Shown here: one piece after another, positions 24,611 through 42,028 of the stretch
Position numbering within the stretch: position 1 is the stretch's first letter
Layout: every line of letters begins with the position of its first letter
Assembly: GCA_023247075.1 (NCBI GenBank)
Contig: JAHFHD010000003.1
Location: 1 to 44,161 of the forward strand
Source: Candidatus Omnitrophota bacterium
Lineage (GTDB): Bacteria > Omnitrophota > Omnitrophia > Omnitrophales > Danuiimicrobiaceae
Length of the DNA: 44,161 nucleotides
Direction: 5' to 3'
Notes under the pieces: model-generated
Told to the model about the DNA's origin: nothing
Seen by the model: only the letters and a program-made list of their open reading frames with translations
Database searches by the model: none
Made by a program: the position numbers and the translations under genes

Positions 24611-24817
24611 GGGTGCATCCCACTTTATCCAGTGTGTCATTCTTCGCCAAAAGGACGAATCCGTCCTCTGGCGGATGAGGCGAAGCCGAAGAATCTAGCG
24701 AACTTAGATCCTTCGCGGAGTTTACCCTGAGCGCCAGATCCTTCACTTCGTTCAGGATGACACAGCGAAGGGCTCAGGATGACATGAAAAACAACCGCAT
24801 CAAGTGGGATACGCCTT
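24611..24817 (-). mobile_element. Full-length ~200-bp MITE-like element, inverted relative to the copies at 38705 and 41829
   Basis: Ends GGGTGCATCCCACTTTATCCAG... and ...CATCAAGTGGGATACGCC are imperfect terminal inverted repeats. The 9-bp sequence CTCGTCTCT occurs at 24602-24610 and 24818-24826. Confidence 0.85.
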
Positions 24818-24911: not shown

Positions 24912-25352
24912 ATGAAAACCATTTTGATTGTGGATGATGAAGAAGGAATTTCGAAACTGCTTGCAGAAAATCTAACCGAGGACGGTTACAAGGTTGTTAT
25001 TGCCACTAATGGCGAAGATGGCCTCAGAAAAGCTCAAATTACAAAACCCGATCTCGTGATTTTAGACGTGATGATGCCGAAGATGGACGGAGCAGAAATG
25101 TGCGCCCACCTCAGAGAAAACGCGAAAACCAAAGACCTCCCAATTATTTTTATGACCGGTCTTAAAACCAAAAACGATGATTTTCAGCTTGGCCGTGATG
25201 TGGGCAACCACACCATTTTCTCAAAACCTTTTGATTATGACGAGCTCTTGGGAACCATCCGCGAAATGCTAAACATCAAAGGTGAAAGTCAGGCCGGCTC
25301 AATTCTCAAAGGTGTTGCACAGAAATTTCTAGGACGAAAAAAAAGCACTTGA
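24912..25352 (+). CDS. Single-domain response regulator (CheY-like receiver)
   Basis: GAGGAG RBS. Motifs MKTILIVDDEEG, DLVILDVMMPKMDG, IFMTG and SKPF. The track start 24804 lies in the repeat and is not credible. Confidence 0.9.
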   Translation: MKTILIVDDEEGISKLLAENLTEDGYKVVIATNGEDGLRKAQITKPDLVILDVMMPKMDGAEMCAHLRENAKTKDLPIIFMTGLKTKNDDFQLGRDVGNHTIFSKPFDYDELLGTIREMLNIKGESQAGSILKGVAQKFLGRKKST

Positions 25353-25409
25353 TGTTTTGCAGACCAGTCCTTGGGCGGCGATTCTCGAGGAACAACAGAG
25401 GAGAAGGCG

Positions 25410-25799
25410 ATGTCAAAGAACATTCTCGTTGTCGATGATGAACCTGAAATAGCTTTGCTCGTTGCAAGCCGGCTGCGCACCGCCGGTTATCAAGTTCAAG
25501 TTGCAAAGGATGGTGAGCAGGCGCTTCGGCTTGTCACCATCACAAAACCAGATTTGATTGTCTTAGACGTGGCTCTTCCGGGAATGAGCGGCGGTGATGT
25601 GTGTGCTCATTTGCAGAAAGATGAAAAAACAAAATATATTCCCATTATTTTTTTAACGGCGCTTAAAACCAAAGAGGATGACGTAAGGCTTGGTTTTGAC
25701 ATTGGCCGCCACACTATTTTTGCAAAACCCTTTAACCCTCAAGAATTTTTAGGTGCAGTTCGGGATGCTTTGGCAGCCCAGAAAGCATCCAAGAGTTAA
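25410..25799 (+). CDS. Single-domain response regulator (paralogue of 24912-25352)
   Basis: Motifs MSKNILVVDDEPE, DLIVLDVALPGMSG, IFLTA and AKPF. Shares LKTK-DD--LG-D-G-HTIF-KPF with the preceding receiver. Confidence 0.9.
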   Translation: MSKNILVVDDEPEIALLVASRLRTAGYQVQVAKDGEQALRLVTITKPDLIVLDVALPGMSGGDVCAHLQKDEKTKYIPIIFLTALKTKEDDVRLGFDIGRHTIFAKPFNPQEFLGAVRDALAAQKASKS

Positions 25800-25825
25800 T
25801 GAATTAGTTAAGCTCAGAGCCCATC

Positions 25826-27460
25826 ATGTTGCATTCAAAGCACGCCATTAAATCTAAAACTCTGAGCGGTTCTCAAATTGAGGTCGAGCAACTTCAAAAA
25901 AAAGTGGAATTACTTCAAAAAGAGCTTGAGCTGCGCGAGCTCGACGCAAAGAAATCTCAGGAAGACTTCACTATTTTGCGGCAAGAGCTGAAGCGAAGCC
26001 GGGAACAAACACGTGTCGTGATTGAAACGGCAAGTGACGCCTTCATCGGAACGGATGCGCGCGGGCTTATTATTGATTGGGACCGTCAAGCGGAAATTAC
26101 ATTTGGCTGGTCCCGGTCTGAAGTCGTTGGTCTTCCATTTGCAGACACAGTTATTTCCCCAAAATTTAGAACTGCTTATGATGAAACCATCCAGCGATTT
26201 GTAGAAACAGGAGACGGGCAAATTTTCATCAATCGAAGATTCCAGACAACGGCGCTTGACCGGAATATGCGCGAATTTCCGATTGAACTTTCAGTTTGGC
26301 CGGTGGATGGCGGGGCTGCCTACCGGTTTAATGCATTTGTACGTGACATGAGTGAGCGTAAGCGCCTTGAGCATCTTAAGAATGAATTTGTGAGCACAGT
26401 TTCTCACGAGCTCAGGACACCAATGACGATTATTCGTGAAGGAGTGAGTCAGGTGGTCGATGGCCTTTTAGGTTCGATTAATGAAGAACAGAAACAATTC
26501 CTCAATATTTCGCTTGGCGCCATTGACCGATTAACCCGAATTGTCAATGACCTGCTTGATTTCTCAAAGATTGAATCCGGAAAAGTCGAGCTTAAAAAAG
26601 AACATGTTGACTTAACAAAACTCGCCCAGGACGTTATCTCGAATTTTCATTCCCGCGCTCAGGAACTTGGACTTGAAATTTGTTTTGAACCTTCAAGTCC
26701 AAAACTCGAGCTTTACCTTGATCGTGACAAGGCGATTCAGATTTTTATAAATTTAATTGGAAACGCACTCAAATTTACTGACACTGGATTGATTACCATT
26801 TCCATCACGGACCGGGAAAAAATGGTGGAGTGCAGCGTCAAAGACACCGGCCGCGGAATCAGCGCTCGCGACCTTCCTCATGTGTTTGGGAAGTTTCAGC
26901 AGTTTTCAAGAGAAGCGGGCCCGGGAGAAAAAGGAACGGGACTTGGGCTTGCCATTTGCAAGGGCCTGGTCGAGCTTCATGGAGGAGCAATTACAGTTTC
27001 AAGCGAACTTGGTTCCGGCACCACATTTACATTTTCATTTCCAAAGTACACGGCAAGGCAGGTTTTTTTGCAGCGCTTGATACACGAGGTAAACGAAGCT
27101 ATGCGCAGGGAAGAATCCCTTGCGGTTTTGCTTCTGACCATTTCGCGTCTTGATTTTGTACGCCGCACCGTTGGTGAAGAACGTTTTCAAATGATTCAGA
27201 AAAAAATGTTAGGTCGAATTCAAGGTGAGTTGAGGACTCAGGATGACCATATTGTCAGTGACCCCCCGCACGTACTTGCAACATTTCGGAAAACGAAAAA
27301 AGAAGATGCACTTTTAATCGGCGGCCGGCTTCAGCAAATCCTGGATGAGGAACTCACACAGCAAGGCATTGTGGATCAAGTGGGTATTGGATGCCGCGTT
27401 GTAAGCTTTCCGGATGAAGCTCTGAATGCTGATGACCTCCTCAACCTTTTGTTCCGTTAA
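25826..27460 (+). CDS. Soluble histidine kinase: coiled coil, PAS, HisKA, HATPase, degenerate GGDEF-like C-terminal domain
   Basis: No TM segment. H-box VSHELRTPMT, N-box LIGNALKFT, G-boxes DTGRGI and GTGLGLAI. The C-terminal ~135 aa follow a GGDEF-fold pattern with DPPHV in place of GGEEF. Confidence 0.88.
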   Translation: MLHSKHAIKSKTLSGSQIEVEQLQKKVELLQKELELRELDAKKSQEDFTILRQELKRSREQTRVVIETASDAFIGTDARGLIIDWDRQAEITFGWSRSEVVGLPFADTVISPKFRTAYDETIQRFVETGDGQIFINRRFQTTALDRNMREFPIELSVWPVDGGAAYRFNAFVRDMSERKRLEHLKNEFVSTVSHELRTPMTIIREGVSQVVDGLLGSINEEQKQFLNISLGAIDRLTRIVNDLLDFSKIESGKVELKKEHVDLTKLAQDVISNFHSRAQELGLEICFEPSSPKLELYLDRDKAIQIFINLIGNALKFTDTGLITISITDREKMVECSVKDTGRGISARDLPHVFGKFQQFSREAGPGEKGTGLGLAICKGLVELHGGAITVSSELGSGTTFTFSFPKYTARQVFLQRLIHEVNEAMRREESLAVLLLTISRLDFVRRTVGEERFQMIQKKMLGRIQGELRTQDDHIVSDPPHVLATFRKTKKEDALLIGGRLQQILDEELTQQGIVDQVGIGCRVVSFPDEALNADDLLNLLFR

Positions 27461-27481
27461 CCGACTTGGCTGGTGCTGCTT

Positions 27482-27844
27482 ATGACTCGGAAAGTATTGG
27501 TTGTGGAAGATGAGCCTGTACTTGCTGCAATGATTCAGTCGCGGCTTGAATCGAATCAATATGAAGTTTCAATCGCGGGGAATGGATTGGAAGGACTCAA
27601 GCAAATTGAAAGAGCGAAGCCAGATCTGATTGTGATGGACATTGCGATGCCTCAAATGGATGGCTACACGCTCGCAAAAATGCTTCGGAGCCGAATAGAA
27701 TTTAAAGAAATTCCAGTGATTGTCGTCACAGCAAAGGGAAATCAGCTCAAAAGTCTGTTTGAACTTGAGGGAATCACTGATTATTTAATTAAGCCATTTC
27801 AGGCCCAGGAGTTGCTTGAGCGAGTCAAGAAGCACATTGGTTAA
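27482..27844 (+). CDS. Single-domain response regulator
   Basis: Motifs MTRKVLVVEDEP, DLIVMDIAMPQMDG, VVTAK and IKPF. Confidence 0.9.
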   Translation: MTRKVLVVEDEPVLAAMIQSRLESNQYEVSIAGNGLEGLKQIERAKPDLIVMDIAMPQMDGYTLAKMLRSRIEFKEIPVIVVTAKGNQLKSLFELEGITDYLIKPFQAQELLERVKKHIG

Positions 27845-27858
27845 GGAGCATTAGAATC

Positions 27859-29064
27859 ATGATGGAAAAACGGGACGAGGAAACCAGAAAAAATATTTTG
27901 GAAGAACTTTTAAATCTTAAGCGCGATCTTGATGTGCTGAAACAATATGTGGATGAACGCGTTCAAGGCGAGCACGACACTCAGACATTTATTCAAAAAA
28001 TCTCTCACCTTTTAAGAACTCCGCTTACAACCGTTCGGGAGAGTATTTCACAAGTCCGAGAAGGTCTTTTTGGTCCGGTTTTGGACGAACAAAATGATTA
28101 TTTAAATTCTGCCCTTCACGAACTCGACCGGCTCAAACGAATCCTCGAAGATTATCTTGATCTTTCAAAAATTGAATCGGGCATCGTCTCGCTCAGGAAA
28201 GAGAAGATTGATTTAGCGCGTCTTGCTCAAAAAACTGCACGTCAATTTGAGCTTTACGCAAAGCAGAAAAATCTTTTAGTGACCACTTCCTTTTCAAGTG
28301 AGAAAATAGAAGTGTTTGCAGATCCGGACCGGTTGACTCAAGTGTTGACCAATCTGCTTGGGAACGCCATTAAATTTACAGAAGAAGGAGCCATTCACGT
28401 TTCAGTCACGGAATTGGCGGAAACAGTTGAATGTTCTGTCTCTGATACCGGAGTTGGAATTGACGAGGCAGATTTACCCAGTCTCTTTACCCGATTTAAG
28501 CAAGTAGGACCATCAAAAGGAGCAGCGCTTGGCACGGGACTTGGTCTTGCCATCAGCAAACAGTTTATTGAATCGCACGGCGGTCAAATCCGAGCAGAGA
28601 GTCACGAAAAAACAGGTTCAAAATTTATTTTCACGCTTCCGAAGCTTGACATTTCTTATGTGCTCAGAGAATCGGTTGCGAGCGGCCTTGCTGATGCGAT
28701 TCAGAAAGAAACAGAGCTTTCGCTCTTGCTTTTTAATGTGACCAATTATGACGAAGTATTGAAGCGTGTCGGCGAAGCAGAAATGGCCCAGATGACTTCA
28801 AGGCTCTCAGAGGTGATTCGCGGTAGTTTCAGGAAAAATGTGGACCAAGCACTTGCCTGGGACGTCAAAAGGGTTCTCGCAATTTTGCCGAGAACCAATC
28901 GGGATCAGGCGCTTGAGGTGGGAAAGAGGATTCAGACTCTTGTCGAAAAAGATTCAGAAATGATTAAAACAACATCGGCACTTCACATTGACTTCCACGT
29001 TACCAATTTTCCGACAGATGGACGGACCGAAGAGATTCTTTTAAAAAAGGCGTTTTCAGAGTAA
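27859..29064 (+). CDS. Soluble histidine kinase without an N-terminal sensor domain; HisKA, HATPase, degenerate GGDEF-like C-terminal domain
   Basis: H-box ISHLLRTPLT, N-box LLGNAIKFT, G-boxes DTGVGI and GTGLGLAI. The C-terminal ~135 aa have DVKRV in place of GGEEF. Confidence 0.88.
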   Translation: MMEKRDEETRKNILEELLNLKRDLDVLKQYVDERVQGEHDTQTFIQKISHLLRTPLTTVRESISQVREGLFGPVLDEQNDYLNSALHELDRLKRILEDYLDLSKIESGIVSLRKEKIDLARLAQKTARQFELYAKQKNLLVTTSFSSEKIEVFADPDRLTQVLTNLLGNAIKFTEEGAIHVSVTELAETVECSVSDTGVGIDEADLPSLFTRFKQVGPSKGAALGTGLGLAISKQFIESHGGQIRAESHEKTGSKFIFTLPKLDISYVLRESVASGLADAIQKETELSLLLFNVTNYDEVLKRVGEAEMAQMTSRLSEVIRGSFRKNVDQALAWDVKRVLAILPRTNRDQALEVGKRIQTLVEKDSEMIKTTSALHIDFHVTNFPTDGRTEEILLKKAFSE

Positions 29065-29120
29065 AGTATTGTCCTGTTTGGCCTTCATAAAAGTAGTAGC
29101 TTATAATTCAGGAGTGCTTT

Positions 29121-29489
29121 GTGGCGAAAAAGATTTTGCTCGTCGACGACGAACCCCAAATATTGATGCTGGTTGCAGCCCGCCTCCGGGCGAATGGGTA
29201 TGAAGTGGTAACGGCGTCAGATGGGGAGGCAGGTCTCAAAAAAGCTCAAAGTGAGCAGCCAGACCTCGTCATCCTTGATTTGATGATGCCCAAGATGGAT
29301 GGCTACCAGGTGTGTGCTGCTCTTAAGGGAGATCAGCGGTACCAGAAAATTCCAATTCTGATTTTTACAGCAAAAGCAGGTGAAGAAGAACGGCGAGTCG
29401 GCCTTGAAGATTGCGGAGCCAATGGATTTTTAATCAAGCCCTTTGAGCCGGCATCTTTGCTTGCGAAAGTGGCTGAGATTTTGGGATGA
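29121..29489 (+). CDS. Single-domain response regulator, translationally coupled to the pilus ATPase
   Basis: GTG start with AGGAG RBS. Motifs KKILLVDDEPQ, DLVILDLMMPKMDG, FTAK and IKPF. The stop overlaps the next ATG (ATGA, 29486-29489). Confidence 0.9.
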   Translation: MAKKILLVDDEPQILMLVAARLRANGYEVVTASDGEAGLKKAQSEQPDLVILDLMMPKMDGYQVCAALKGDQRYQKIPILIFTAKAGEEERRVGLEDCGANGFLIKPFEPASLLAKVAEILG

Positions 29490-31192
29490 AGAAGTCCAAT
29501 ACCTCGCTTGGAGAAAGCCTGGTATTTGAAGGTTTGCTAACCCCAGAGCAATACCGGCAAATTCAAATTGAAATAGAGAAAACCCAAGAGTCTTTCGTCA
29601 AAGTTCTGCGCCGCCTCCGTCTGATTGATGAAAAACGCCTACTCGCTTTTTTAAGCGCTAAGTTTCAAATTCCTCAAGTGGAGTTGACCCATCAAATCAT
29701 CAAACCTGAAGTGCTCAAGGTGATTCCAGAGATGCTTGTTCGCCGCTTGAGCGTTATGCCCATCCGGAAAATTGGAAAGCGATGCACGGTAGCCGTGAGC
29801 GACCCGATGAATCTGAGCGTGACAGACCGGTTGAGAATTGAGACTGGTTTGGACATTGATCCTGTTCTTGCAACGGAATCTGAAATTAAAAATGCGATTG
29901 ACCAATATTATGGGGCTAGAAGTGAAATGAACGATGTGGTTGAAAGTTTGATTCAGCCTGAAGAAACAACTCCGGATGCAAACACTCTGGCGCAGGGTGC
30001 TGGCATTGAAGAAGCACCGATTATGAAACTGGTCAACACCATGTTTTCGGAAGCGATTCGACAAGGGGCGAGTGATGTTCACATTGCGCCGGACAAAAAA
30101 GAGGTGGTGGTCAGAAATCGCGTTGATGGCATGCTGCGGGAAGTCCATCGTTACCCAAAATCGTCGCACACCGCTGTTGTGTCGCGCCTCAAAGTTATGG
30201 CGAATCTGGATATTTCAGAAAGTCGGGTCCCACAAGATGGCAGGGTTCAACTCGAAAGTCAGGGAGAACAAGTCGATCTTCGTGTGTCGATTGTCCCGAC
30301 CATTCACGGAGAAAATTTGGTCATTCGGCTGCTGAATCTTTCAACAGCCGTCCGTTCTCTTGAGGATTTGGGAATGCTCGAAGCAGATTCAGAAAGTTTC
30401 AGGCATTTAATTTTAAAGCCTTACGGCATGCTTTTAATTACGGGACCGACGGGGAGTGGAAAAACCACGACGCTTTATGCAGCACTTCATCAAATCAATA
30501 CTCCAGACAAAAATATTGTGACGATTGAAGATCCGGTGGAATACCAGCTTCCGATGGTCAGGCAAATCCACGTCAATCCGAAAGTAGACCTGACTTTTGC
30601 AAATGGGCTGCGTTCCATTTTAAGGCAGGACCCCGACATTATTATGGTGGGAGAAATACGCGACAAAGAGACAGCTGAAATTGCCATTCAGGCTGCGCTG
30701 ACTGGGCATCTGGTGCTTTCTACGCTACACACCAATGATGCAACATCCGCTGTGGCGCGCCTGATTGATATGGGAATCGAACCATTTTTAATTTCTTCCA
30801 CCGTGATTGGTATTCTGGCTCAGAGACTGGTTCGAAATATTTGTCCGGATTGTAAGCGTGAGTTTCCAGTCGAGGATCAGATGCTCCGGAAGTTTGAGTT
30901 TGCCCGAAACGGTCTCCCAAAATCCGCTGCTTATGAATTTAAGTCATTCTTTAAAGGGACGGGCTGCTTAAGTTGCAGACAGTCCGGCTACCGGGGACGC
31001 TCTGGGATTTTTGAATTGTTTATTCCGGATGATGAAATTCGTGAACTCATTTTGCACAAAGCTTCGAGCACCTCCATTCGTGAACGAGCAGTTGCTAAGG
31101 GGATGAACGTTTTAAGACAGGATGGGCTTGAGAAAATCAAACGGGGAATGACAACCATCGATGAAGTTTTTCGCGCGACACAGGATGTGTGA
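29486..31192 (+). CDS. Type IV filament assembly ATPase (GspE/PilB family)
   Basis: 568 aa. T2SSE_N-type N-terminus, Walker A GPTGSGKTTT, Asp box EDPVEY, Walker B IIMVGEIRD, His box GHLVLSTLHTND, and tetracysteine CPDC...CLSC. Confidence 0.95.
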   Translation: MKKSNTSLGESLVFEGLLTPEQYRQIQIEIEKTQESFVKVLRRLRLIDEKRLLAFLSAKFQIPQVELTHQIIKPEVLKVIPEMLVRRLSVMPIRKIGKRCTVAVSDPMNLSVTDRLRIETGLDIDPVLATESEIKNAIDQYYGARSEMNDVVESLIQPEETTPDANTLAQGAGIEEAPIMKLVNTMFSEAIRQGASDVHIAPDKKEVVVRNRVDGMLREVHRYPKSSHTAVVSRLKVMANLDISESRVPQDGRVQLESQGEQVDLRVSIVPTIHGENLVIRLLNLSTAVRSLEDLGMLEADSESFRHLILKPYGMLLITGPTGSGKTTTLYAALHQINTPDKNIVTIEDPVEYQLPMVRQIHVNPKVDLTFANGLRSILRQDPDIIMVGEIRDKETAEIAIQAALTGHLVLSTLHTNDATSAVARLIDMGIEPFLISSTVIGILAQRLVRNICPDCKREFPVEDQMLRKFEFARNGLPKSAAYEFKSFFKGTGCLSCRQSGYRGRSGIFELFIPDDEIRELILHKASSTSIRERAVAKGMNVLRQDGLEKIKRGMTTIDEVFRATQDV

Positions 31193-31269
31193 TGTTGACA
31201 GTCAATTCAAATTGGTAGGGAACGATTTGGTGCCATTCCCTACAGACCAAAAGTAATTAAATACAAATT

Positions 31270-32481
31270 ATGCCGACATTTGCTTATCAAGCTCGCACAC
31301 AGCAAGGTAAAAAAGTATTCGGAACTGTTGAAGCAGTTTCAGAGCACTCACTTGCAGACCAATTGAAGCGCGAAGGCTATTTCATTACCTCAATCAAGGC
31401 AACGGACGCTCACTCTCATCAGGCATCACTTCGTGTTTCATCTGGCGGCCGAGTGGGCGCCGCGCAACTGTCTCTTTTTTACTTCCAACTCGGAAATATG
31501 CTTGAAGCCGGTGTGCCGTTACTTGCGTCGTTAAAAGCGGTTCAAAAGCAAAGTACAAAACAATTTTTCAAGCAAGTAGTTTTAATGCTTGCAACTCAAG
31601 TGGAGCAGGGGGTTCGTTTTTCAGATGCTTTAACACGCTACCCCAGGATTTTTCCAGAACTCTACAGGGCAATGATTCAAGTTGGTGAGACAAGCGGCAA
31701 TTTGGACCTTGTTTTAAAACAGGTTGCTGAGTTAAATGAACGGAATGAAAAATTGCGCCATGAAATTTTCTCCGCGCTCGCTTACCCGGTTGTTCTTGTC
31801 TGTGCGAGTATTGCCGTTGTGACTTTTATGATTGTCTGGATTGTTCCGTCATTTTCCGCTATTTTTTTAAGAGCAGGCGTACCGCTTCCGCTTCCAACGC
31901 GGCTTCTTTATGGCTTCAGTATGTGGGTGAAATCAAATGTCTGGTTTTTGGCAGTTGCTGCAATTGCTTTTGGTTTCGGCGCACCCTTCTTGCTTCGCTT
32001 TGAAAAGTTTAAATATGGGTGGGACCGGTTTTGGCTTTCTGTTCCCATTGTTGGGCAATTAATAAGTCAAATCGAAATTTCACTTTGGGCGCGGAACGTT
32101 GCACTTATGCATGCAAGCGGCGTCCCAATCTTAAAGACGCTTGAGATGACGGGAAAACTTGCGGGAAACCTTCCCTTTCAGAGGGTACTGATACAAGCCC
32201 GGGTTCGTGTTCAGGCAGGGGAGAAATTGGGTGAGACGATTAAAGAAGGTGGCATTTTTCCACCTGATATTGTTCAAATGGTACTCACGGGCGAACAGTC
32301 TGGAAACCTGGACAAAATGTTGTACAAGGCTGCACTATTTTACGATGAACTTCTTACCCGAACACTCAAGCAGCTCACGTCTGCGATTGAGCCCATCTTT
32401 ATTGTCTTTATGGGAATCGTGGTAGGGTTTATTATGATTTCTGTTTTACTTCCAATTTTTGATATGCTAAAACTGTTTTGA
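31270..32481 (+). CDS. Type IV filament platform protein (GspF/PilC family)
   Basis: 403 aa. Two GspF-type repeats (LGNMLEAGVPLL... and VALMHASGVPIL...) and three TM segments. Confidence 0.93.
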   Translation: MPTFAYQARTQQGKKVFGTVEAVSEHSLADQLKREGYFITSIKATDAHSHQASLRVSSGGRVGAAQLSLFYFQLGNMLEAGVPLLASLKAVQKQSTKQFFKQVVLMLATQVEQGVRFSDALTRYPRIFPELYRAMIQVGETSGNLDLVLKQVAELNERNEKLRHEIFSALAYPVVLVCASIAVVTFMIVWIVPSFSAIFLRAGVPLPLPTRLLYGFSMWVKSNVWFLAVAAIAFGFGAPFLLRFEKFKYGWDRFWLSVPIVGQLISQIEISLWARNVALMHASGVPILKTLEMTGKLAGNLPFQRVLIQARVRVQAGEKLGETIKEGGIFPPDIVQMVLTGEQSGNLDKMLYKAALFYDELLTRTLKQLTSAIEPIFIVFMGIVVGFIMISVLLPIFDMLKLF

Positions 32482-32488
32482 GCATTAA

Positions 32489-32536
32489 CCCCCTCTCCCC
32501 CTGTAGGGGGCGATGGGAAAAAGTGCAGAACTCAAG
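32489..32536. repeat. Half copy of the CTTGAGTTCTGCA-type repeat
   Basis: CCCCCTCTCCCCCTGTAGGGGGCGATGGGAAAAAGTGCAGAACTCAAG. Only the right end and one G/C palindrome are present. Confidence 0.75.
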
Positions 32537-32602
32537 CTTGAAGTAGTTAAACTTTAGGGTATCTTTGTAGAGGGTGCGCAAATAACGAGAGATGGAGGAA
32601 AA

Positions 32603-33091
32603 ATGAAGCGTAGTTGTAGGGAAAACAAGTCGCGAGGCTTCACGCTTTTAGAAATTTTGGTTGTGATTACGCTCATCATTCTCATTGCCGGCATTGCGAT
32701 TCCACGATTTGCGGGAGTAACAGATGAAGGTCGGCGCGCAAAATCTCACGCAGAACTCAAAACAATTCAAACAGCACTTGAGTCGTATCTTTTGAATGTA
32801 TCGGCCACCCTTCCCGCGGCAGGCGGCGGTAACGTGGGTGATTTGGAAGTGACTTTGGAAGGCGCAACTCCGCGTCTCGTTGGTGAAATGGATGATTTTG
32901 TGGACCCTTTTGGCGCCACAGCCACCACCCAGTATCTTTACATGATTAGTGCAAATTCGAGATTTTATGTCATGTTTTCAATTGGTCCGGATCGCACGGC
33001 TGACATCACGGGCATTTCAGCAACTGGTAATATTACTCCAAACAGTCCGGATGACGACATCTTCGTCACAAACGGCCAGCTTGCTGCATAA
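32603..33091 (+). CDS. Major pseudopilin/pilin, GspG-like (prepilin-type N-terminus)
   Basis: GGAGG RBS. Leader MKRSCRENKSRG followed by FTLLEILVV (Gly-1, Phe+1, Glu+5). GspG-like core AKSHAELKTIQTALESY and DPFG...SIGPDRTADITG...DDDIF. Confidence 0.85.
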   Translation: MKRSCRENKSRGFTLLEILVVITLIILIAGIAIPRFAGVTDEGRRAKSHAELKTIQTALESYLLNVSATLPAAGGGNVGDLEVTLEGATPRLVGEMDDFVDPFGATATTQYLYMISANSRFYVMFSIGPDRTADITGISATGNITPNSPDDDIFVTNGQLAA

Positions 33092-33147
33092 CTTTCTGAT
33101 TGAACACACAACCTTTACACATCTCGCCATCTGGAAATAGAAACGCA

Positions 33148-33531
33148 TTGCGAGGCACTTCTGTTCGTCTCATTTTTAAGCCCCGTGGTTTTACTATTCT
33201 GGAAGTCCTGATTGCCGCACTCTTGGTTGGGGTCGGTATGTTTGCCATTATGGAAGCCTTCAACCGCGGATATTTTGGAATTGGAACTGTGGAAGATTAC
33301 AACCTCGCCCTTTCACTGACTGAAGAGCGGCTTGAACAAGTGAAAGATGCAAGCTTTGCTTCCGTGTCTTCAAGTGCCCGCGCAGCGGTGAGTGGTTTTT
33401 CTGATTTTGACCAGCAAGTGGTGGTAACCAGTCCTCACGCAGATTTAAAACAAGTGGCAGTGACCACGTATTGGCAAGTTCCGGGTGGAGAGAAAAACAC
33501 AAGCTTGACCACTTATGTCGTAAATAATTAA
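33148..33531 (+). CDS. Minor pseudopilin, GspI/PilV-like
   Basis: Prepilin motif KPRG followed by FTILEVLIAALLVG. There is no ATG upstream of the motif. TTG 33148 is the preferred start over TTG 33100; the start is uncertain. Confidence 0.75.
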   Translation: MRGTSVRLIFKPRGFTILEVLIAALLVGVGMFAIMEAFNRGYFGIGTVEDYNLALSLTEERLEQVKDASFASVSSSARAAVSGFSDFDQQVVVTSPHADLKQVAVTTYWQVPGGEKNTSLTTYVVNN

Positions 33532-34053
33532 ATGAATAAAAAAGCATTGACGCTTCTTGAGCTTGTTTTCTCACTTTCCCTTGTCATCTTTCTTGTCGGC
33601 TCCATTCTCTTCCTTTATGTGGTAGTCATGCGCGGCTCTAGTGAGCTTAGGCATCGGACAGGTGTCGGGGAGAAGCTTTATTTTGCACTTGAGCGGGTGA
33701 GTCGCGACGCGCGAAATGCAAATGCGATTTCAGTTGCAAATCACGCTTTGAGATTCACCGTAAGCGAGGGCGGAAGTGACACAAGTTACATCTATTACCT
33801 TTACAATGCTGCCGATTCATGGGTTCCGGCCTACAACCAAACAAGTTATGATTTAAGAAGAGCGCCGCTTACTGGAGGAATCAATGGGACATTTACCTAT
33901 GGAGCGGGAACTTTGATTGCTTCGGGTCTTCTTCCGCCGGCGGCCAACTCCACCATTACAAGTTCTGGAAATGTCGCGATTTTAAAGCTAGTCGGTTCAG
34001 AAAACAACAGCACACTGACTGTACGAAGAAGTGTGCTCCCAAGGAATGTGTAG
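33532..34053 (+). CDS. Minor pseudopilin, GspJ/PulJ-like
   Basis: N-terminus MNKKA followed by LTLLELVFSL, with Ala rather than Gly at -1 and Glu at +5. The start abuts the previous stop. Confidence 0.7.
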   Translation: MNKKALTLLELVFSLSLVIFLVGSILFLYVVVMRGSSELRHRTGVGEKLYFALERVSRDARNANAISVANHALRFTVSEGGSDTSYIYYLYNAADSWVPAYNQTSYDLRRAPLTGGINGTFTYGAGTLIASGLLPPAANSTITSSGNVAILKLVGSENNSTLTVRRSVLPRNV

Positions 34054-34054
34054 T

Positions 34055-35278
34055 ATGAGAAGTTCCCGAAGTGGATTTGTGCTTCTGCTCACGCTGATTT
34101 TGATGACGAGCATGGCTGCAATTGCCGGAGGTTTAATTATTGCGCTCACAACTGAATTCCGCGCCGCAAAAATCCAGATGAACGACCAAAAAGCTTTTTG
34201 GCTTGCCGAAGCAGGAATGGCTGATGCCGTGAAGCGCCTTAAGAATGATGAAATTAATTTAAATGATGGTGCTACAGACAACAGCACAATGGCCAATGTG
34301 AGCTTTGCCGAAGGAACTTATTCTGTTGTGCTCACACGGACTGGAAATGATATTTCAACTGTGGTGACTGGAACCTTTGGCGGCCAAAGCCGTGTCCTAA
34401 ATACCACCTTTACTTTTTCTTATGGACTTCCACCTGCTTTTAGTTACGCACTTTTTGGCGGGAACACAAATGCTCAAACGTTTAAAGTGGGAAATAATAA
34501 TACCGCCATGGCTTTAATCTCAGGTGACCTGTTTTACAATGCAACGGCAGGGGTGGATATTGTGGACGTAAAAAATAGTGCTCAGGTGACAAATGGAGTG
34601 GTTTACGCAGACCAAGCAACGGGTGGTGGATCGTACACGCTCGTCACTACAGTTCCAAGTCCACTTCCAACTTATCCTAGTTTTACGTCAACTTTTTACG
34701 ACAATAAAATTACAACTGCGGAGGCAAATTCTTCCGGAAATTTTACCTTAAGCTCAAACAATAATCTCAATCTCGCAGGCGGTACAGTGTACTATGACAC
34801 AGTGACAATCAAGAATACAGCAACGGTAACGGGGCCCGGCACTATTGTGGCAACCAAAGCAATCACCATTCAGGATCAAGCGGCGATTGGTGCGGATGTT
34901 AACATCATCACCAAAAAGGATGTGACGATTCAAGACAGTGCAACAGTTCAGTCTGGCGGGTCAATTTACGCACGGACAGACATTACAGTTAAGAACAGTG
35001 CTAATGTAACTTCATCACTACTTGCTCCAGATTCCGGTCAGCAGATTACGGTTTCTCAAACCGCACAGGTCTCAGGGATTTTGTACACTGATAAAGCAGT
35101 TTTAAAAGATGACACTGTGACTCAGGGCAGTGTAGTAGCCAATAAATTTGGGAGTAATCAAATTGAGGGAAATGCACATTTAATTTTTAATTCGAATGTG
35201 CTGCCGCACACACTTCCGCAAGGAATCACAGGAATAGAACAATATACTCAGAAAGCAAATTCGTGGAACGAAAGTTAG
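34055..35278 (+). CDS. PilX_N/GspK-like minor pilin with a large beta-helix-like repetitive C-terminal domain
   Basis: N-terminus MRSSRSGFVLLLTLILMTSMAAIAGGLIIALTTEFRAAKIQMNDQKAFWLAEAG (PilX N-terminal pattern, no Glu+5). The C-terminal half has reiterated short beta-strand units (VTIKNTATVTG, ITIQDQAAIGA, VTIQDSATVQSG, ITVKNSANVTS, ITVSQTAQVSG). Confidence 0.78.
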   Translation: MRSSRSGFVLLLTLILMTSMAAIAGGLIIALTTEFRAAKIQMNDQKAFWLAEAGMADAVKRLKNDEINLNDGATDNSTMANVSFAEGTYSVVLTRTGNDISTVVTGTFGGQSRVLNTTFTFSYGLPPAFSYALFGGNTNAQTFKVGNNNTAMALISGDLFYNATAGVDIVDVKNSAQVTNGVVYADQATGGGSYTLVTTVPSPLPTYPSFTSTFYDNKITTAEANSSGNFTLSSNNNLNLAGGTVYYDTVTIKNTATVTGPGTIVATKAITIQDQAAIGADVNIITKKDVTIQDSATVQSGGSIYARTDITVKNSANVTSSLLAPDSGQQITVSQTAQVSGILYTDKAVLKDDTVTQGSVVANKFGSNQIEGNAHLIFNSNVLPHTLPQGITGIEQYTQKANSWNES

Positions 35279-35288
35279 AGTTGCTTAA

Positions 35289-35396
35289 CTTGAGTTCTGC
35301 ATATTTATGTCATTTTGACCCCGTAGGGGGAAGAATCTAGTGAATGCGAGATCCTTCACTTCGTTCAGGATGACATGCAAAGGACTCAGGATGACA
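35289..35396. repeat. Composite MITE-like repeat (CTTGAGTTCTGCATATTT end joined to GTCATTTTGACCCCGTAGGGGGAAGAATCTAG ... CAGGATGACA modules)
   Basis: Near-identical to 35892-35950 and reverse-complementary to 37741-37795. It overlaps the 5' end of the next ORF. Confidence 0.85.
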
Positions 35397-35879
35397 GCTA
35401 GGAAATTGAAATTTGCTGACCCCAAATTGCCTAAAAAGCCATTTGGCCTTACTCTTATTGAAATGGTGATGGTATTTTCGCTTGTTGCGCTAGTACTTGG
35501 AATCTTCGTAGTCAGGACAGCAGGTCTTAATGACCAGAAACGGATTGAAACTGCACGCGGAGATTTGCGGGCGCTTGAAACTGCTGTTCACGCTTATTAC
35601 CTCAATCATAGTAATGTTTACCCGTCAGGCTCTGACTGGCAGACAAATGACCTTCAGAGTGAAAACCCTCGCGTGACTGGCCAGGTTTTGTTTGATCCGT
35701 TTGCGTCAAGCAGCGGGGAATATCTTTTTTCAACCAGTGCGAATGGTTCCTATTATGTCATTTACTCCATCGGTCCAAACCGCACGGCAAACATTACGGG
35801 AATCAATAATAACGGTCTGTTGACAGGGGTAAATGCCGATGATATTTTTGTCACAAACGGAACAAGCGCCTTCGCTTGA
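35391..35879 (+). CDS. Second GspG-like major pilin (paralogue of 32603-33091)
   Basis: Prepilin motif KKPFG followed by LTLIEMVMV (Glu+5). Its C-terminus YVIYSIGPNRTANITGI...ADDIFVTNG parallels YVMFSIGPDRTADITGI...DDDIFVTNG of the first pilin. Candidate starts are GTG 35340, ATG 35370 and ATG 35391, all inside the repeat. Confidence 0.8.
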   Translation: MTARKLKFADPKLPKKPFGLTLIEMVMVFSLVALVLGIFVVRTAGLNDQKRIETARGDLRALETAVHAYYLNHSNVYPSGSDWQTNDLQSENPRVTGQVLFDPFASSSGEYLFSTSANGSYYVIYSIGPNRTANITGINNNGLLTGVNADDIFVTNGTSAFA

Positions 35880-35891
35880 GCTAACTTGTAA

Positions 35892-36060
35892 CTTGAGTTC
35901 TGCATATTTATGTCATTCTGACCCCGTAGGGGGAAGAATCTAGCGAATGCGAGATCCTCTTCGCGGAGTTTACCCTGAGCGCTAGATCCTTCACTTCGTT
36001 CAGGATGACACGCGAAGGGCTCAGGATGACAACTAAAAAGTTGAAATATGCAGAATTCAA
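35892..36060. mobile_element. Composite MITE-like element bounded by 17-bp inverted repeats TTGAGTTCTGCATATTT / AAATATGCAGAATTCAA
   Basis: 16/17 matching terminal inverted repeats enclose GTCATTCTGA..., GAAGAATCTAGCGAA, GGAGTTTACCCTGAGCGCTAGATCC and CAGGATGACA modules shared with the other copies. Confidence 0.85.
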
Positions 36061-36082
36061 ATTATTAATCAACCAAATCCAT

Positions 36083-37672
36083 ATGCACACCAAAAATATT
36101 TTCCTTGCGATTGAGTTTTCAATCAGCCGTGTCAAGCTAGTGAAGATGAAAAAGGAAGGCCTGCGCCTTTCTTTGCTTGATGCCCGGAGTGTGGTGATTC
36201 CACGAGGTGTGAGTGAAAAAGAATTGAAAGAAGTGTGGCGCGAGGCAGTTAGACAAGTGACAACTGGTGAAGTGAATAATCGTGTCACAGTGCTGATTGG
36301 GGCGGACAGCCCGCGAAATGTTTTCACTTATTTTAATTTACCTAAGCTTCCGAAGTCAGAGCTTTTGGACACGCTCAAATGGAAAATAAAAGAGGAGCTC
36401 ACTTTTCCGATTGAAGAAGCAGTTTTAGATTACCGAATTCCAAAATCATTTTCCGGCCGTAAAGATGACCTTCGCGAGACTTTGGTGAGCGTCCTGCCTC
36501 AGTCTGAAATTAATCCATTTATTGAAATGGTGAAGTCTCTTGGTTTTGAACAAGTTTATGCTGCTCAATGTATTTTTTCGATTGAGCGCCTCCCCCAAAC
36601 ATTTCCAGATTTTGAAAGTACCGTCCTTAGCGTCGTCGACATTGGTGAAGCAGTAACGGAAATTGCACTCTACCAAAAGGGTACGCTTCGTTTCCTTAGA
36701 AAAGTTGCTTTTGGCGGACGATTTTTAACTTCTCTGCTCACACAACCGCTTGCTGGCAGCAAAGGGACTGCGACACTTTCGTGGGCGGAAGCAGAGCGGG
36801 TGAAATCAGAAGAGCATCTTGTGCTTCCAATTGATGACAAACTTTTGCTTGGAAAAGTAGAACGTTCAAAACTCCGCGCTGTCATACGACCTGAGCTTGA
36901 GCGGCTCCTCAGTGAGCTTAAGCGTTCTTTTGAGTCATATGGAGAATCAAATGGTCATCTGGTGGAACAAATGTTTGTGACGGGTGGATCAAGCAAGCTT
37001 CAGGGGCTACGCGCTTTTCTTGAAGAGGAACTTCATATTCCGGTTAAGCGGGTAACAATTGAAAACGATTTTACTTTTGCAAGTGGACAAACAAAACCAG
37101 ACTCAGATTCCTATTACCGGATGCTTGCGCTTGCCTCCGAATTTGATTTGGACGGAGCGCGCGAACGTCTTCAAGGCAATGTTCAGAGAGATCAATTGAT
37201 TCGGCGTATTTTAAATGTTCCGGTTTTGATTGGATTTTTTTTGATTGTGCTCACGGCCTGCGGGTTCCTTCATTACCAGTACCGGACGCTAGACGGTGCT
37301 CGGCGCGATTTAGAACGTCAAACGGTAGGTTTAAAACCCGGCTACCAGGCAGCAAAGGACGCTCAAGCGCTTGAACAAAAATTGACGTTTGAGAAAAATT
37401 TGGAGACAGCGGCACTTTCAGAGGAACCGTTTTGGACTGAGGTGTTAAGTGAGCTTCAGGGCATTTTTCAAAAAGGAGTGACGCTTCACAGTGTGCAATA
37501 TGAAGACCACAGCCTTTTGGTGGATGGCGAGGTTCAGGGGACATTTGGGAAGGACTCATTTGTAGAATTTGCAAGAGCAGCCCAAGGACCCATTTTCCAC
37601 ACCGCCGCACTTGTTCGTGCCGAACCAAACGGAGACGCAACCAATTTTACAATCCGTCTTGAAATGAGTTAA
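36083..37672 (+). CDS. Fused PilM-like (actin-fold ATPase) / PilN-like (TM plus fimbrial assembly) protein
   Basis: PilM pattern IFLAIEFSISRVKLV...LPKSELLDTLKWKIKEELTFPIEEAVLDY...VTGGSSKLQGL. This is followed by the TM helix VPVLIGFFLIVLTACGFL and a PilN-like C-terminal domain. The track start 36005 and ATG 36026 lie inside the repeat. Confidence 0.8.
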   Translation: MHTKNIFLAIEFSISRVKLVKMKKEGLRLSLLDARSVVIPRGVSEKELKEVWREAVRQVTTGEVNNRVTVLIGADSPRNVFTYFNLPKLPKSELLDTLKWKIKEELTFPIEEAVLDYRIPKSFSGRKDDLRETLVSVLPQSEINPFIEMVKSLGFEQVYAAQCIFSIERLPQTFPDFESTVLSVVDIGEAVTEIALYQKGTLRFLRKVAFGGRFLTSLLTQPLAGSKGTATLSWAEAERVKSEEHLVLPIDDKLLLGKVERSKLRAVIRPELERLLSELKRSFESYGESNGHLVEQMFVTGGSSKLQGLRAFLEEELHIPVKRVTIENDFTFASGQTKPDSDSYYRMLALASEFDLDGARERLQGNVQRDQLIRRILNVPVLIGFFLIVLTACGFLHYQYRTLDGARRDLERQTVGLKPGYQAAKDAQALEQKLTFEKNLETAALSEEPFWTEVLSELQGIFQKGVTLHSVQYEDHSLLVDGEVQGTFGKDSFVEFARAAQGPIFHTAALVRAEPNGDATNFTIRLEMS

Positions 37673-37683
37673 TTTTTTTTAGC

Positions 37684-37795
37684 TGTCATCCTGAACGACA
37701 CGTCTTGCGAGTGCGCAAAAGCGCGAGTGAAGGATCTCGCATTCACTAGATTCTTCCCCCTACGGGGTCAGAATGACATCAATATGCAGAAATCA
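37684..37795. repeat. Composite MITE-like repeat copy
   Basis: TGTCATCCTGAACGACACGTCTTGCGAGTGCGCAAAAGCGCGAGTGAAGGATCT is identical to a module at 41888-41940. It is followed by CGCATTCACTAGATTCTTCCCCCTACGGGGTCAGAATGACA and a degenerate AATATGCAGAAATCAGG end. Confidence 0.85.
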
Positions 37796-37810
37796 GGTTA
37801 ATTGAAACAA

Positions 37811-38656
37811 ATGATAAATCAATCCCCAAATTTTAATTTGGTTCGACTCGCAGCCGCTTTGGTGTCGGTGCTTTTTAGCCTCGCACTTATTCTTTTTTTT
37901 GTGCATCGGGTGGACGAAGCCAAAACAAAGCTTCGCAAAGAAAAAGAAATCCTCACAGGCTACCGTTCTGTCGTGCAAAAGTTAAGTTCAGTCAATAAAA
38001 AGAAATTGGATGAGGAACATTCGCGTCTTGCGAAGCGCCTTGCGCCGGAAGACAATCATTCATTATTGATTAGCGAGATTACCGAGTATGCTCGGAAACA
38101 CGGGCTTACGCTTCGTTTTGAGAATCCACTTGAAAATGAGCGGGGAAGTATAAAAGAAAGTGAGTTGAAACCGTTTTTTGACCAGGCACCATTTCAGATG
38201 GTGCTTGAAGGGAGTTATGCTGGAATCGCGCGATTTTTGGATGATTTAAGCAGACTTCAAAATGGATTGATTCACGTAGGGCAATTTTCTATTCGTCCAA
38301 GTGAATCCCACCCGCCGCACTTAGAGCTTTCGCTTCACTCCTTTCTTTTGGTTGAAAATGTTCACGCGAGCGAGCAAAAAGTTCAAGCTCCAAAGGGGCA
38401 GGCACGCCATAAGGCAAAAAGCCGCTACGAACTTTCAAAACGAAATCCCTTTCTTAAGGTGGAGCGGTTGAGTGATAAAAAGTTGACGCTTGAAGGAATT
38501 GTTTATGACCCAAATTCACCGGTGGCATTAATGGATGGTGAGATGAAACGCGTCGGTGACCAGGTGCGCGGCGCCACGATTGTCGAGATTAAGCCTGACA
38601 GCGTCCTCTTTAAAAAAGGCGAAGAAACCCTCCGCGTCCGCCTCAAGCAAAATTAA
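37811..38656 (+). CDS. Fused PilO-like / PilP(GspB/GspC HR)-like pilus alignment protein
   Basis: TM helix LVRLAAALVSVLFSLALILFFV, a coiled coil, and the PilO-like core FQMVLEGSYAGIARFLDDLSRL. The C-terminal beta-domain is LTLEGIVYDPNSPVALMDGEMKRVGDQVRGATIVEIKPDSVLF. TTG 37802 is an alternative start. Confidence 0.7.
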   Translation: MINQSPNFNLVRLAAALVSVLFSLALILFFVHRVDEAKTKLRKEKEILTGYRSVVQKLSSVNKKKLDEEHSRLAKRLAPEDNHSLLISEITEYARKHGLTLRFENPLENERGSIKESELKPFFDQAPFQMVLEGSYAGIARFLDDLSRLQNGLIHVGQFSIRPSESHPPHLELSLHSFLLVENVHASEQKVQAPKGQARHKAKSRYELSKRNPFLKVERLSDKKLTLEGIVYDPNSPVALMDGEMKRVGDQVRGATIVEIKPDSVLFKKGEETLRVRLKQN

Positions 38657-38704: not shown

Positions 38705-38897
38705 GGGTGCATGCCATTGATGCGGTTGTTTTTTATGTCATCCTGAGCCCTTCGCTGTGTCATCCTGAACGACCCTAAAGGGCTGCTGCGCGGAGTGAAG
38801 GATCTAGCGCTCAGGGTAAACTCCGCGAAGGATCTAAGTTCGCTAGATTCTTCGGCTCCGCCTCAGAATGACACACTGGATGAAGTGGGATGCACCC
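38705..38897 (+). mobile_element. Full-length ~200-bp MITE-like element
   Basis: TIRs GGGTGCATGCCATTGATGCGG... and ...CTGGATGAAGTGGGATGCACCC. Flanking 9-mers TAAGAAAAG (38696-38704) and TAAAAAAAG (38898-38906) match at 8/9 positions. Confidence 0.88.
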
Positions 38898-38978
38898 TAA
38901 AAAAAGATACCGCTTTCTTCGAATCAAGCTGTGGGCATAATGCCTTCAGGTAAGAACGCAATTTTTGGAGGTGAATAC

Positions 38979-39200
38979 ATGAAGAAAAAACTAATCACTC
39001 AATCGAAGGATATTCTTGGCGGCACACCAGTTTTTGCAGGCACAAGAGTTCCTGCCCGTGCTTTGTTCGACTACCTTGAGGTTGGTAGGCCTCTTGATGA
39101 TTTTCTAGATGATTTTCCTGCTGTCACCAAAACTCAAGCAGTAGGTCTGATTAAACTTCTCAAAGCAAATGTTGTGAATCTCCATGAACGTGCTGCTTGA
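38979..39200 (+). CDS. DUF433-family antitoxin-like protein
   Basis: GGAGGTG RBS. ILGGTPVFAGTRVPARALFDYLEVGRPLDDFLDDFPAVT is the typical DUF433 core. Confidence 0.8.
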   Translation: MKKKLITQSKDILGGTPVFAGTRVPARALFDYLEVGRPLDDFLDDFPAVTKTQAVGLIKLLKANVVNLHERAA

Positions 39201-41828: not shown

Positions 41829-42028
41829 GGGTGCATCCCACTTGATGCAGTTGTTTTTCATGTCATCCTGAGCCCTTCGCTGTGTCATCCTGAACGACAC
41901 GTCTTGCGAGTGCGCAAAAGCGCGAGTGAAGGATCTAGCGCTCAGGGTAAACTCCGCGAAGGATCTAAGTTCGCTAGATTCTTCGGCTCCGTCTCAGAAT
42001 GACACACTGGATGAAGTGGTATACACCC
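41829..42028 (+). mobile_element. Full-length ~200-bp MITE-like element
   Basis: TIRs GGGTGCATCCCACTTGATGCAG... and ...CTGGATGAAGTGGTATACACCC. The exact 8-bp sequence GAAAGCGG occurs at 41821-41828 and 42030-42037. Confidence 0.9.

Follow-up and report, generated by a model that had tools for sequence, protein, structure and literature searches.

How is a type IV filament controlled when the genes of the machine directly follow an array of kinases and bare receivers? This question is raised by a locus of a Candidatus Omnitrophota bacterium. The window that we analysed is the whole stretch of 44,161 nucleotides (nt), an entire contig (C134) of a 2.28-Mb, 95%-complete metagenome-assembled genome (MAG) whose source run is a groundwater metagenome. 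Positions 24912-38656 on its + strand encode a receiver, a second receiver, a PAS-kinase, a receiver, a kinase and a receiver (RR1, RR2, HK1, RR3, HK2 and RR4), then a PilB/GspE ATPase, a PilC/GspF platform, five prepilins, a PilM-PilN fusion and a PilO-PilP/GspC-like fusion (Table 1). The best explanation of this arrangement is that the signalling and filament genes form a single functional unit: a type IV filament (TFF) machine typical of the lineage, together with a two-component input module of its own. As to how this module works, the reading we prefer, with a probability of roughly 55%, is that phosphorylated receivers switch the filament motor directly.

Pfam and NCBIfam profile searches of the window's proteins placed every gene in the order and on the strand that the first-pass annotation, made from the letters alone, had given. 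The short gaps that it described in the regulatory part measure 14-57 nt, and the overlap of the last receiver with the ATPase start is 4 nt (ATGA). It had also stated that none of the four receivers has an output domain, and we detected none in any of them: all consist of the receiver domain (REC) only. The Asp-Asp, Asp, Thr and Lys positions are kept in all four, according to an alignment that includes a sequence we take to be that of E. coli CheY and that we used purely as a position ruler. Neither kinase has hydrophobic segments. By their domains and residues, the genes are thus predicted to encode a two-component system with CheY-like single-domain receivers. No CheW or MCP domains were found in the locus, and the kinases are of the HisKA type, not the CheA type, so that this is not a pathway of the Pil-Chp/Tax type. 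The first-pass annotation overlooked that both kinases end in a GGDEF-derived domain that lacks the GGDEF motif; it also missed the kinase and signal-peptide protein genes just upstream and the interspersed repeats, both described below.

To investigate whether the association of these genes with PilB is conserved, we mapped the window's proteins onto relatives and then considered the 30 closest PilB matches in a set of 400 genomes from this phylum, 20 of which we extended to a maximum of 20 kb. Twenty-six loci, belonging to many families, have the order PilB-PilC-G-I-J-K-PilMN-PilO-PilP. Kinase and receiver genes (1-2 kinases and 1-5 receivers) lie at most three genes upstream of PilB in 18 of these 26 clusters, compared with about 2 predicted from how densely such genes occur in the genome. 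For this linkage, a nominal P of 7e-15 was obtained, which ignores shared ancestry; the clusters are related, and their independence is therefore overstated. No kinase or receiver neighbours were found at seven other PilB paralogue loci that we examined. In a PilB tree, the PilBs of the clusters stand apart from the paralogues C31a, C31b and C72 of the window's genome, and the fourth paralogue tested, C122, falls inside the large clade. The presence of kinases and receivers requires about six changes on this tree, so the linkage looks old, with several losses. A search with a four-sequence alignment recovered only three relatives that were already known.

The spacing and conservation of the receiver adjacent to PilB are of particular interest. 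The gap from the preceding gene to PilB is -4 to about +30 nt in most loci, with an ATGA overlap or tight spacing in several genera. Eleven of 13 receivers in this position (position -1) fall into one short-branched group that includes RR4, with weak backbone support. RR4 is 67-71% identical to its PilB-adjacent orthologues in relatives from three genera (G006, G004 and G018), compared with 57-63% for PilB and 30-39% for the alignment proteins, and it is among the most conserved proteins of the cluster. Among the other signalling proteins, RR1 has an orthologue in G006 (67% identity), RR3 one in G004 (55%) and HK2 one in G006 (46%), where it lies directly before PilB. The RR4 orthologue of G004 (L037:10155-10403) is open for only 85 amino acids (aa), with 67% identity over 83 aa, and may reflect a frameshift or assembly error in that MAG.

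We also looked for fusions of a receiver with the ATPase, using a chimeric query that joins the PilB C-terminus to RR4. Proteins of 702 aa with the Pfam domains MshEN, T2SSE and Response_reg occur in three genomes of the same taxonomic order (G080, contig C8, L110; G087, contig C33, L111; G113, contig C15, L113) and in G132 (contig C12, L112). In the first three, PilC and G/J/K-type pilins come next after the fusion, which has receivers and a large kinase on its flanks; the pilins of G080 and G087 are followed by a kinase of 1245 aa and by bare receivers. The G132 fusion also lies among kinases and receivers, but we found neither a PilC nor a K homologue there. In G080, a gene for a BBP2-type beta-barrel porin lies just upstream of the fusion. 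PilM-N, PilO and PilP are missing from the fusion clusters, whose PilB is a paralogue, about 38% identical to that of the window. The fused receivers are 39-44% identical to receivers of the RR4 type, and their best matches are position -1 receivers. The fusions indicate that ATPases of this family can be acted on by a receiver in cis; they do not show that RR4 is the same receiver set free.

Post-translational control had already been proposed in the first-pass annotation. Given the conserved linkage, the conservation of RR4, the tight spacing, the PilB-REC fusions and the lack of output domains, it is the best-supported reading, and we infer rather than observe it. In the mechanism that we envisage, HK1, with its PAS input, and HK2, which has no sensor, would phosphorylate the four receivers, both kinases possibly being modulated via the GGDEF-derived tail. 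RR4, translationally coupled to PilB, would bind the motor in one phosphorylation state, with PilB, PilM or PilC as its target, and this binding would gate filament extension. The remaining receivers could be competing phosphate sinks, antagonists or branch points, as PixH is for PixG and PilH for PilG. Contacts of this kind have been described: phosphorylated PixG binds PilB1, with PixH as antagonist (PMC11181946), and the phosphomimic Rre6 D318E binds PilT2 (PMC7656254). In the machine itself, an I-J-K-type priming complex is predicted, whose K member, with a variable ComZ-like beta-solenoid, would probably sit at the filament tip. The PilM-PilN and PilO-PilP-like fusions would form the inner-membrane and periplasmic alignment complex, and a prepilin peptidase, PilT-type retraction ATPases and any secretin would be supplied from elsewhere in the genome.

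The GGDEF-derived tails might connect this circuit to cyclic di-GMP (c-di-GMP). The tail of HK1 covers aa 409-544 (nt 27050-27460), with DPPHV in place of GGDEF and RTQD at the I-site spacing; it scores 16.6-18.4 bits. In HK2, DVKRV replaces GGDEF, and the tail scores above the Pfam cut-off. A dead GGDEF tail is kept on cluster kinases of at least 8 relatives, and in an alignment of 11 tails an Asp is invariant, with Arg at -3 or -4, at the I-site spacing. The pertinent comparison is SgmT, a kinase whose inactive GGDEF domain binds c-di-GMP (PMC3509222); a tail of this type is an inactive GGDEF domain in which an RxxD I-site is intact and precedes the GGDEF position by five residues. By analogy, the catalytically dead tails may bind c-di-GMP or GTP, as SgmT does.

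Two other explanations of the array must be considered. Under one, which is possible but on balance unlikely, control would be indirect: the receivers would belong to a branched phosphorelay with its output elsewhere (a REC-GGDEF cyclase, some other enzyme or a trans-acting DNA-binding regulator), and the filament would respond to c-di-GMP or to transcription. In keeping with this explanation, REC-GGDEF cyclases adjoin the orthologous cluster of G092 and that of G026, a partial one adjoins that of G262 (L081:16194-17063, L088:2232-3134 and L090:267-1436), and a CheB-like REC protein adjoins the cluster in G227. (The C-terminal stretch of the G262 protein resembles an MshEN-type motif.) Moreover, the kinases themselves bear GGDEF-derived tails, the genome encodes many GGDEF proteins (at least 7 good ones), and single-domain receivers often function as phosphate sinks, PilH being an example (PMC11656802). 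However, none of the receivers at the window's own locus has an output domain, and the receiver best conserved of all is the one that adjoins PilB and is translationally coupled to it. The PilB-REC fusions, too, point to action of a receiver domain in cis on ATPases of this family, and the window's PilB lacks the canonical c-di-GMP motif. Under the other explanation, the array is merely a neighbour that serves an unrelated pathway. Two-component genes are indeed common, with about 60 kinase- or receiver-like places in this genome, and not every orthologous cluster has them. Yet chance placement is difficult to reconcile with a linkage seen across many families in 18 of 26 clusters where about 2 are expected, with a preceding gene that overlaps or abuts PilB, with 0 of 7 linked paralogue loci, and with PilB-REC fusions in the phylum, so we regard this explanation as very improbable.

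It is important to emphasize that several observations weigh against direct switching of the motor by receivers. Eight of the 26 orthologous clusters have no upstream kinase or receiver, and therefore the machine can work without this input. The hypothesis that the fused REC is an orthologue of RR4 is unsupported, as it lies outside the RR4 group in the receiver tree (whose backbone support is weak), and the fusion argument consequently holds only at the level of the domain family. The receivers with GGDEF or CheB-like outputs near some relatives' clusters mean that part of the signal may run via c-di-GMP. The I-site is weakened in HK2 (KNVD). The canonical MshEN motif for c-di-GMP (tandem RLGxxLLxxGLIxxxxLxxxLxxQ) was not found in PilB, which scores 16.3 bits with NF053729 against a cut-off of 38; its N-terminus has Ser in place of the first Arg, and the second motif is degenerate. 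PilBs with and without upstream kinases or receivers showed no difference in this N-terminal motif, both having KSLGESLV... With regard to co-transcription, promoter and terminator scans yielded only the background level obtained with shuffled sequence (a promoter-like site scoring 10/12 at 29078-29107, before RR4, carries no weight), and the metatranscriptome of the same groundwater sample contained no reads of this organism.

A further question is what kind of machine is being controlled. We based its classification on hidden Markov model (HMM) scores, matches in the PDB and the within-phylum tree. The HMM classification of PilB, PilC and the pilins that the first-pass annotation had proposed as a check placed them in neither the curated type II secretion system (T2SS) families nor the curated type IVa pilus (T4aP) families. 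PilB scores 616.6 bits with the PilB equivalog TIGR02538 (cut-off 675.65) and 605.2 bits with the GspE model TIGR02533 (cut-off 630.25), a near tie in which neither cut-off is reached. The same tie, below both cut-offs, is seen for the other four extension ATPases of the genome, and so it is a property of the phylum and not of the locus. The closest PDB matches of PilB are PilF and PilB over the full length, followed by GspE. The generic features of the TFF superfamily are all present: the ATPase, the platform, class III signal peptides (G, then F/L-T-L-x-E) and an A24 peptidase in the genome.

The pilins had been described as T2SS-like. Their Gsp similarity is real, in that GspG, GspI and GspK are the best curated matches; on the other hand, all of these scores, like that of GspF, are below the T2SS family cut-offs, the protein in the J position has no GspJ match, and GspH gave weak N-terminal matches only. 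The GspG-like major pilin is 67-69% identical among relatives, and the J-position pilin is kept at the same place across the phylum. For the K-like pilin, an AlphaFold2 model (pLDDT 79) predicts a pilin stem with a C-terminal beta-solenoid of about 250 aa. Its nearest fold in the PDB is Thermus ComZ (6qvi; E 3e-7, with low TM-scores of 0.24-0.28), followed by beta-helical ice-binding proteins. ComZ is the T4aP tip pilin of Thermus competence. Among relatives, the C-terminal domain of the K-like pilin ranges from 138 to 546 aa, as expected for an exposed tip. The second G-like pilin is 37-40% identical to the first.

The alignment proteins had been called T4aP-like, and this description agrees with the PilM_2 and PilO matches, the INLLP motif and the PilO fold; the PilP assignment is weak. 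In its domain architecture, a PilM-PilN fusion corresponds to GspL, and PilO is a homologue of GspM. In the window's fusion, whose transmembrane (TM) segment lies at aa 397-415 of the long open reading frame (ORF), this GspL-like architecture is combined with a PilM match rather than a T2SSL match; the PilM half has PDB matches to PilM and none to GspL. The PilN motif INLLPPEI is kept at the PilM-N junction in distant orthologues; a word-index protein search with the fusion gave four weak matches only. The AlphaFold2 model of PilO-P (pLDDT 82) matches PilO first, then Amuc_1100 and PulM. Its C-terminal beta domain is short and HR-like, with weak GspC and T2SSB matches, no PDZ domain and a weak PilP match (2lc4, E 0.23). 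In distant relatives, the PilO and PilP halves are encoded by two neighbouring genes, and the product of the second has a TM helix of its own, so interpreting the window's protein as a fusion is sound; the separate P half of one relative has a weak T2SSC match. Outside the window, the second G-like pilin and the PilO-PilP fusion are restricted to G006, G004 and G018, which represent the window's family and the neighbour closest to it; both are recent elaborations of a cluster that is otherwise phylum-wide.

The first-pass annotation concluded that the locus mixes two canonical architectures. This is misleading: the G-I-J-K order followed by PilM-N, PilO and PilP is the norm throughout the phylum, and for this reason we rejected the notion of a chimera. 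As judged from sequence comparison, the locus is a single, coherent type IV filament system, typical of its lineage, that matches neither of the curated families; it is not a hybrid.

We also looked for a secretin linked to this system. The operon ends after PilO-P, with no PilQ secretin there; no secretin was found on this contig, nor in cis in any of the 26 orthologous clusters. The sole one seen (L041, G024) lies in a divergent cluster, the PilB of which falls with the C122 paralogue in the PilB tree, and two in G307 lie about 12 kb downstream, in an apparently separate filament cluster, so that no assignment could be made. The genome search that had been suggested for the missing parts revealed four secretins on other contigs, one Peptidase_A24 (C177) and two PilT-family ATPases (C33, 461 bits, and C71, 363 bits; cut-off 319), neither of them in this locus. 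Two of the secretins belong to other filament clusters (C72 and C122), and the one on C11 probably continues the T4aP-like cluster of C31 across a contig end. The fourth, of 527 aa, is an orphan (C95:4956-9067). It is preceded by an ExeA-like AAA_22 protein and a GspB-like TM protein of 227 aa, and followed by a TPR/coiled-coil protein. The C-terminus of the 227-aa protein shares the motif L.L.GI...VGD..G..V..I with the PilP-like domain of the window, and we consider the C95 secretin a candidate for the outer-membrane channel of the window's machine.

These observations permit a reading in which the machine is a T2SS: a periplasmic GspG-like pseudopilus would push folded proteins through a secretin encoded in trans (for example, that of C95), and the receivers would time secretion. 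The best curated matches of the pilins point this way, as do the platform, which scores best on GspF, the gene order E-F-G-I-J-K-L(=PilMN)-M(=PilO), which mirrors gsp operons, the weak GspC/T2SSB matches of the P-like domain, and the orphan secretin with its ExeA-like and beta-domain neighbours. Nevertheless, we judge this function to be unlikely. Every Gsp score is under its curated cut-off; GspL/T2SSL, GspH and the GspC PDZ domain are lacking, as is a cis secretin in the 26 clusters; and the alignment proteins are closest to PilM and PilO. The large, variable ComZ-like beta-solenoid of the K-like pilin fits a surface-exposed tip, not a periplasmic piston, and the genome has two PilT-family ATPases. 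We therefore consider a surface pilus, used in adhesion or uptake, more likely than a periplasmic T2SS piston.

Table 1. Features of the locus and its surroundings (positions in the window; scores in bits)
Feature	Position	Strand	Evidence
RR1, stand-alone receiver, 146 aa	24912-25352	+	Pfam Response_reg 91; phospho-acceptor residues kept
RR2, stand-alone receiver, RR1 paralogue	25410-25799	+	Response_reg 87.6; clusters with RR1 in receiver tree
HK1, soluble kinase: coiled coil, PAS, HisKA, HATPase_c, degenerate GGDEF tail	25826-27460	+	Pfam; no TM segment
RR3, stand-alone receiver	27482-27844	+	Response_reg 96.7
HK2, soluble kinase without N-terminal sensor: HisKA, HATPase_c, degenerate GGDEF tail	27859-29064	+	HisKA 52, HATPase_c 103, GGDEF 32; no TM segment
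RR4, stand-alone receiver; stop overlaps PilB start (ATGA)	29121-29489	+	Response_reg 103
Extension ATPase, PilB/GspE type, 568 aa, MshEN-type N-terminal domain	29486-31192	+	T2SSE 465, MshEN 68
Platform PilC/GspF	31270-32481	+	T2SSF 196, two repeats; GspF 355 (cut-off 424); PilC models 286-307
Probable major pilin, GspG-like (G/FTLLE)	32603-33091	+	N_methyl; TIGR01710 GspG 51.7 (cut-off 88.85)
Minor pilin, GspI/PilV-like	33100-33531	+	GspI 29.7 (cut-off 44.35); PilV 22.5
Minor pilin, J position (A/LTLLE)	33532-34053	+	Weak ComGE/ComGF matches only; no GspJ match
Tip-type minor pilin, GspK/PilX-like N-terminus, no Glu5	34055-35278	+	GspK N-terminus 25.1 (cut-off 130)
Second GspG-like pilin (G/LTLIE)	35391-35879	+	GspG 32.6; ORF start at 35340 inside repeat
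PilM-PilN fusion, 529-555 aa: actin-like cytoplasmic domain, one TM segment, periplasmic domain	36083-37672	+	PilM_2 69.9 (cut-off 27)
PilO with short PilP/GspC-HR/GspB-like beta domain, 284 aa	37802-38656	+	PilO 29.1 (cut-off 22)
Possible upstream signalling extension, membership uncertain: multi-TM GAF kinase, 2-TM kinase, signal-peptide protein of 283 aa, mutually overlapping	19798-22005, 22002-23750, 23750-24601	+	Pfam; TM segments
Small interspersed repeats with inverted-repeat ends	24676-24815, 35285-35428, 35889-36063, 37684-37801, 38717-38902, 41830-42033, 8902-8992		Repeat search

The unit might extend further upstream, as only a repeat insertion separates RR1 from two genes for membrane kinases and one for a signal-peptide protein. 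Apart from faint or occasional matches, these genes are not conserved beside the orthologous clusters. The signal-peptide protein has a paralogue (C114:1181-1759; 66 aa aligned at 42% identity) whose gene ends another cluster of PilC plus pilins in this genome, and thus the family may be associated with filaments.

Copies of the interspersed repeat occupy the larger gaps of the locus, namely those before RR1, between the K-like and second G-like pilins, between the latter and PilM-N, between PilM-N and PilO-P, and after PilO-P; they break no ORF. Their in-frame start codons lengthen the longest-ORF starts of RR1 (open from 24804, the extra stretch being inside the repeat), of the second G-like pilin and of PilM-N (open from 36005). 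In the source metagenome, read depth is 96-267x in the repeats, compared with about 8x in their flanks. Directly after the operon, between two repeat copies, is a pair of DUF433 and DUF5615 (PIN-like) genes (38931-39507), which is probably a toxin-antitoxin module.

Other filament loci of this genome have their own peculiarities. In C27:11683-24270, genes for F-type ATPase subunits immediately precede those for a split PilB, PilC, pilins and a PilM-N fusion; this PilB is apparently frameshifted or split, into ORFs of 350 and 432 aa. The arrangement matches the "symbiotic F-ATPase/T4aP" loci of Omnitrophota (PMC10066038), from which the locus of the window differs. In C122:76-15371, the gene for a protein of at least 2466 aa immediately precedes those for another PilB, a PilM-like protein and a secretin.

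The switching of extension ATPases is known in few model organisms, in which it occurs by c-di-GMP via MshEN, by PilZ/FimX proteins and by the chemosensory receivers PixG and PilG. Omnitrophota is a phylum of ultra-small bacteria that may be predatory or dependent on hosts. A central role of pili in their attachment to hosts or prey has been proposed (PMC10066038); in that publication, we found neither the term "two-component" nor "response regulator". As a tentative extension of our preferred reading, which we hold with less than even confidence, the circuit could be independent of chemosensory systems: the kinases would read a PAS signal and, through their dead GGDEF domains, c-di-GMP, and one bare receiver would dock on the ATPase to license assembly. 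This receiver would exist in two evolutionary states, as a separate gene overlapping pilB and as a fused domain, and the variable ComZ-like tip may recognise prey, host or DNA. If true, such a circuit would be a new regulatory principle for PilB/GspE motors, in a machine without a cis secretin. The locus is a compact and self-contained case, with two kinases, four receivers and the motor in one operon and a natural fusion counterpart in the same taxonomic order, and for this reason direct gating could be tested with a handful of recombinant proteins. An additional point concerns automated annotation, as the curated T2SS and T4aP models do not partition the filament systems of Omnitrophota.

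Receiver control of type IV filament motors is already known; the variant presented here is the combination of classical, GGDEF-tailed kinases with bare receivers encoded in the operon. Among the closest regulatory systems is Tax1 of Synechocystis (kinase PixL; receivers PixG and PixH; ATPase PilB1; PMC11181946, bioRxiv 10.1101/2021.06.11.447907), in which phosphorylated receivers that do not bind DNA act on a type IV pilus (T4P) ATPase, one receiver is an antagonist, and there are several receivers per kinase. In the window, these likenesses would apply under our preferred reading. Tax1 is, however, a chemotaxis-type system with a CheA-like kinase, CheW and an MCP-like photoreceptor, and PixG has a PATAN domain. 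The window instead has HisKA kinases, with a PAS domain or no sensor and with dead GGDEF tails, and bare REC receivers in the same operon as the machine, and it lacks CheA, CheW and MCP. The Pil-Chp system of P. aeruginosa (ChpA; PilG and PilH; PMC10519157, PMC11656802) likewise has single-domain CheY-like receivers, an opposing pair that affects T4P activity and polarity post-translationally. It differs in its CheA-type kinase, in that PilG acts partly via the adenylate cyclase CyaB and polar recruitment, in not being encoded with pilB and in having no GGDEF-tailed kinases. The kinase tails are reminiscent of M. xanthus SgmT (PMC3509222), whose C-terminal inactive GGDEF domain keeps an I-site-like RxxD and whose pathway is tied to T4P-dependent behaviour. 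SgmT is nevertheless a hybrid kinase with a receiver domain and pairs with the DNA-binding regulator DigR, whereas the partners in the window are bare receivers and the I-site of HK2 is weakened. Within Omnitrophota, the PilB-REC clusters have the receiver fused to the C-terminus of the ATPase, and both arrangements are found among kinases and bare receivers.

With respect to the machine, the locus shares with the T4aP systems of Myxococcus and Thermus (PilB, PilC, PilM-Q; ComZ) the MshEN-type ATPase, homologues of PilM, PilN and PilO, a short PilP-like domain, PilT paralogues in the genome and a beta-solenoid tip pilin. It differs from them in the PilM-PilN and PilO-PilP fusions, in a GspG-like major pilin without the disulfide region, in the absence of a cis PilQ and in PilB and PilM scores under the equivalog cut-offs. 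With T2SSs (GspC-M), it has in common the order E-F-G-(H)-I-J-K-L-M, the Gsp pilin matches, the GspL-like fusion architecture and the putative GspC-HR/GspB-like domain; it departs from them in scores under the cut-offs, in having no secretin, GspC PDZ domain or T2SSL signature, in PilM/PilO-like alignment proteins and in the beta-solenoid of the K-like pilin. A further resemblance is to the pilus-like cluster Amuc_1098-1102 of Akkermansia, for which we know of no kinase or receiver context. The PilM-like protein of the window matches the Amuc_1101-family model with 73.8 bits, far under the family cut-off of 650, and the fold of the PilO half is like that of Amuc_1100; the gene set of the Akkermansia cluster is different.

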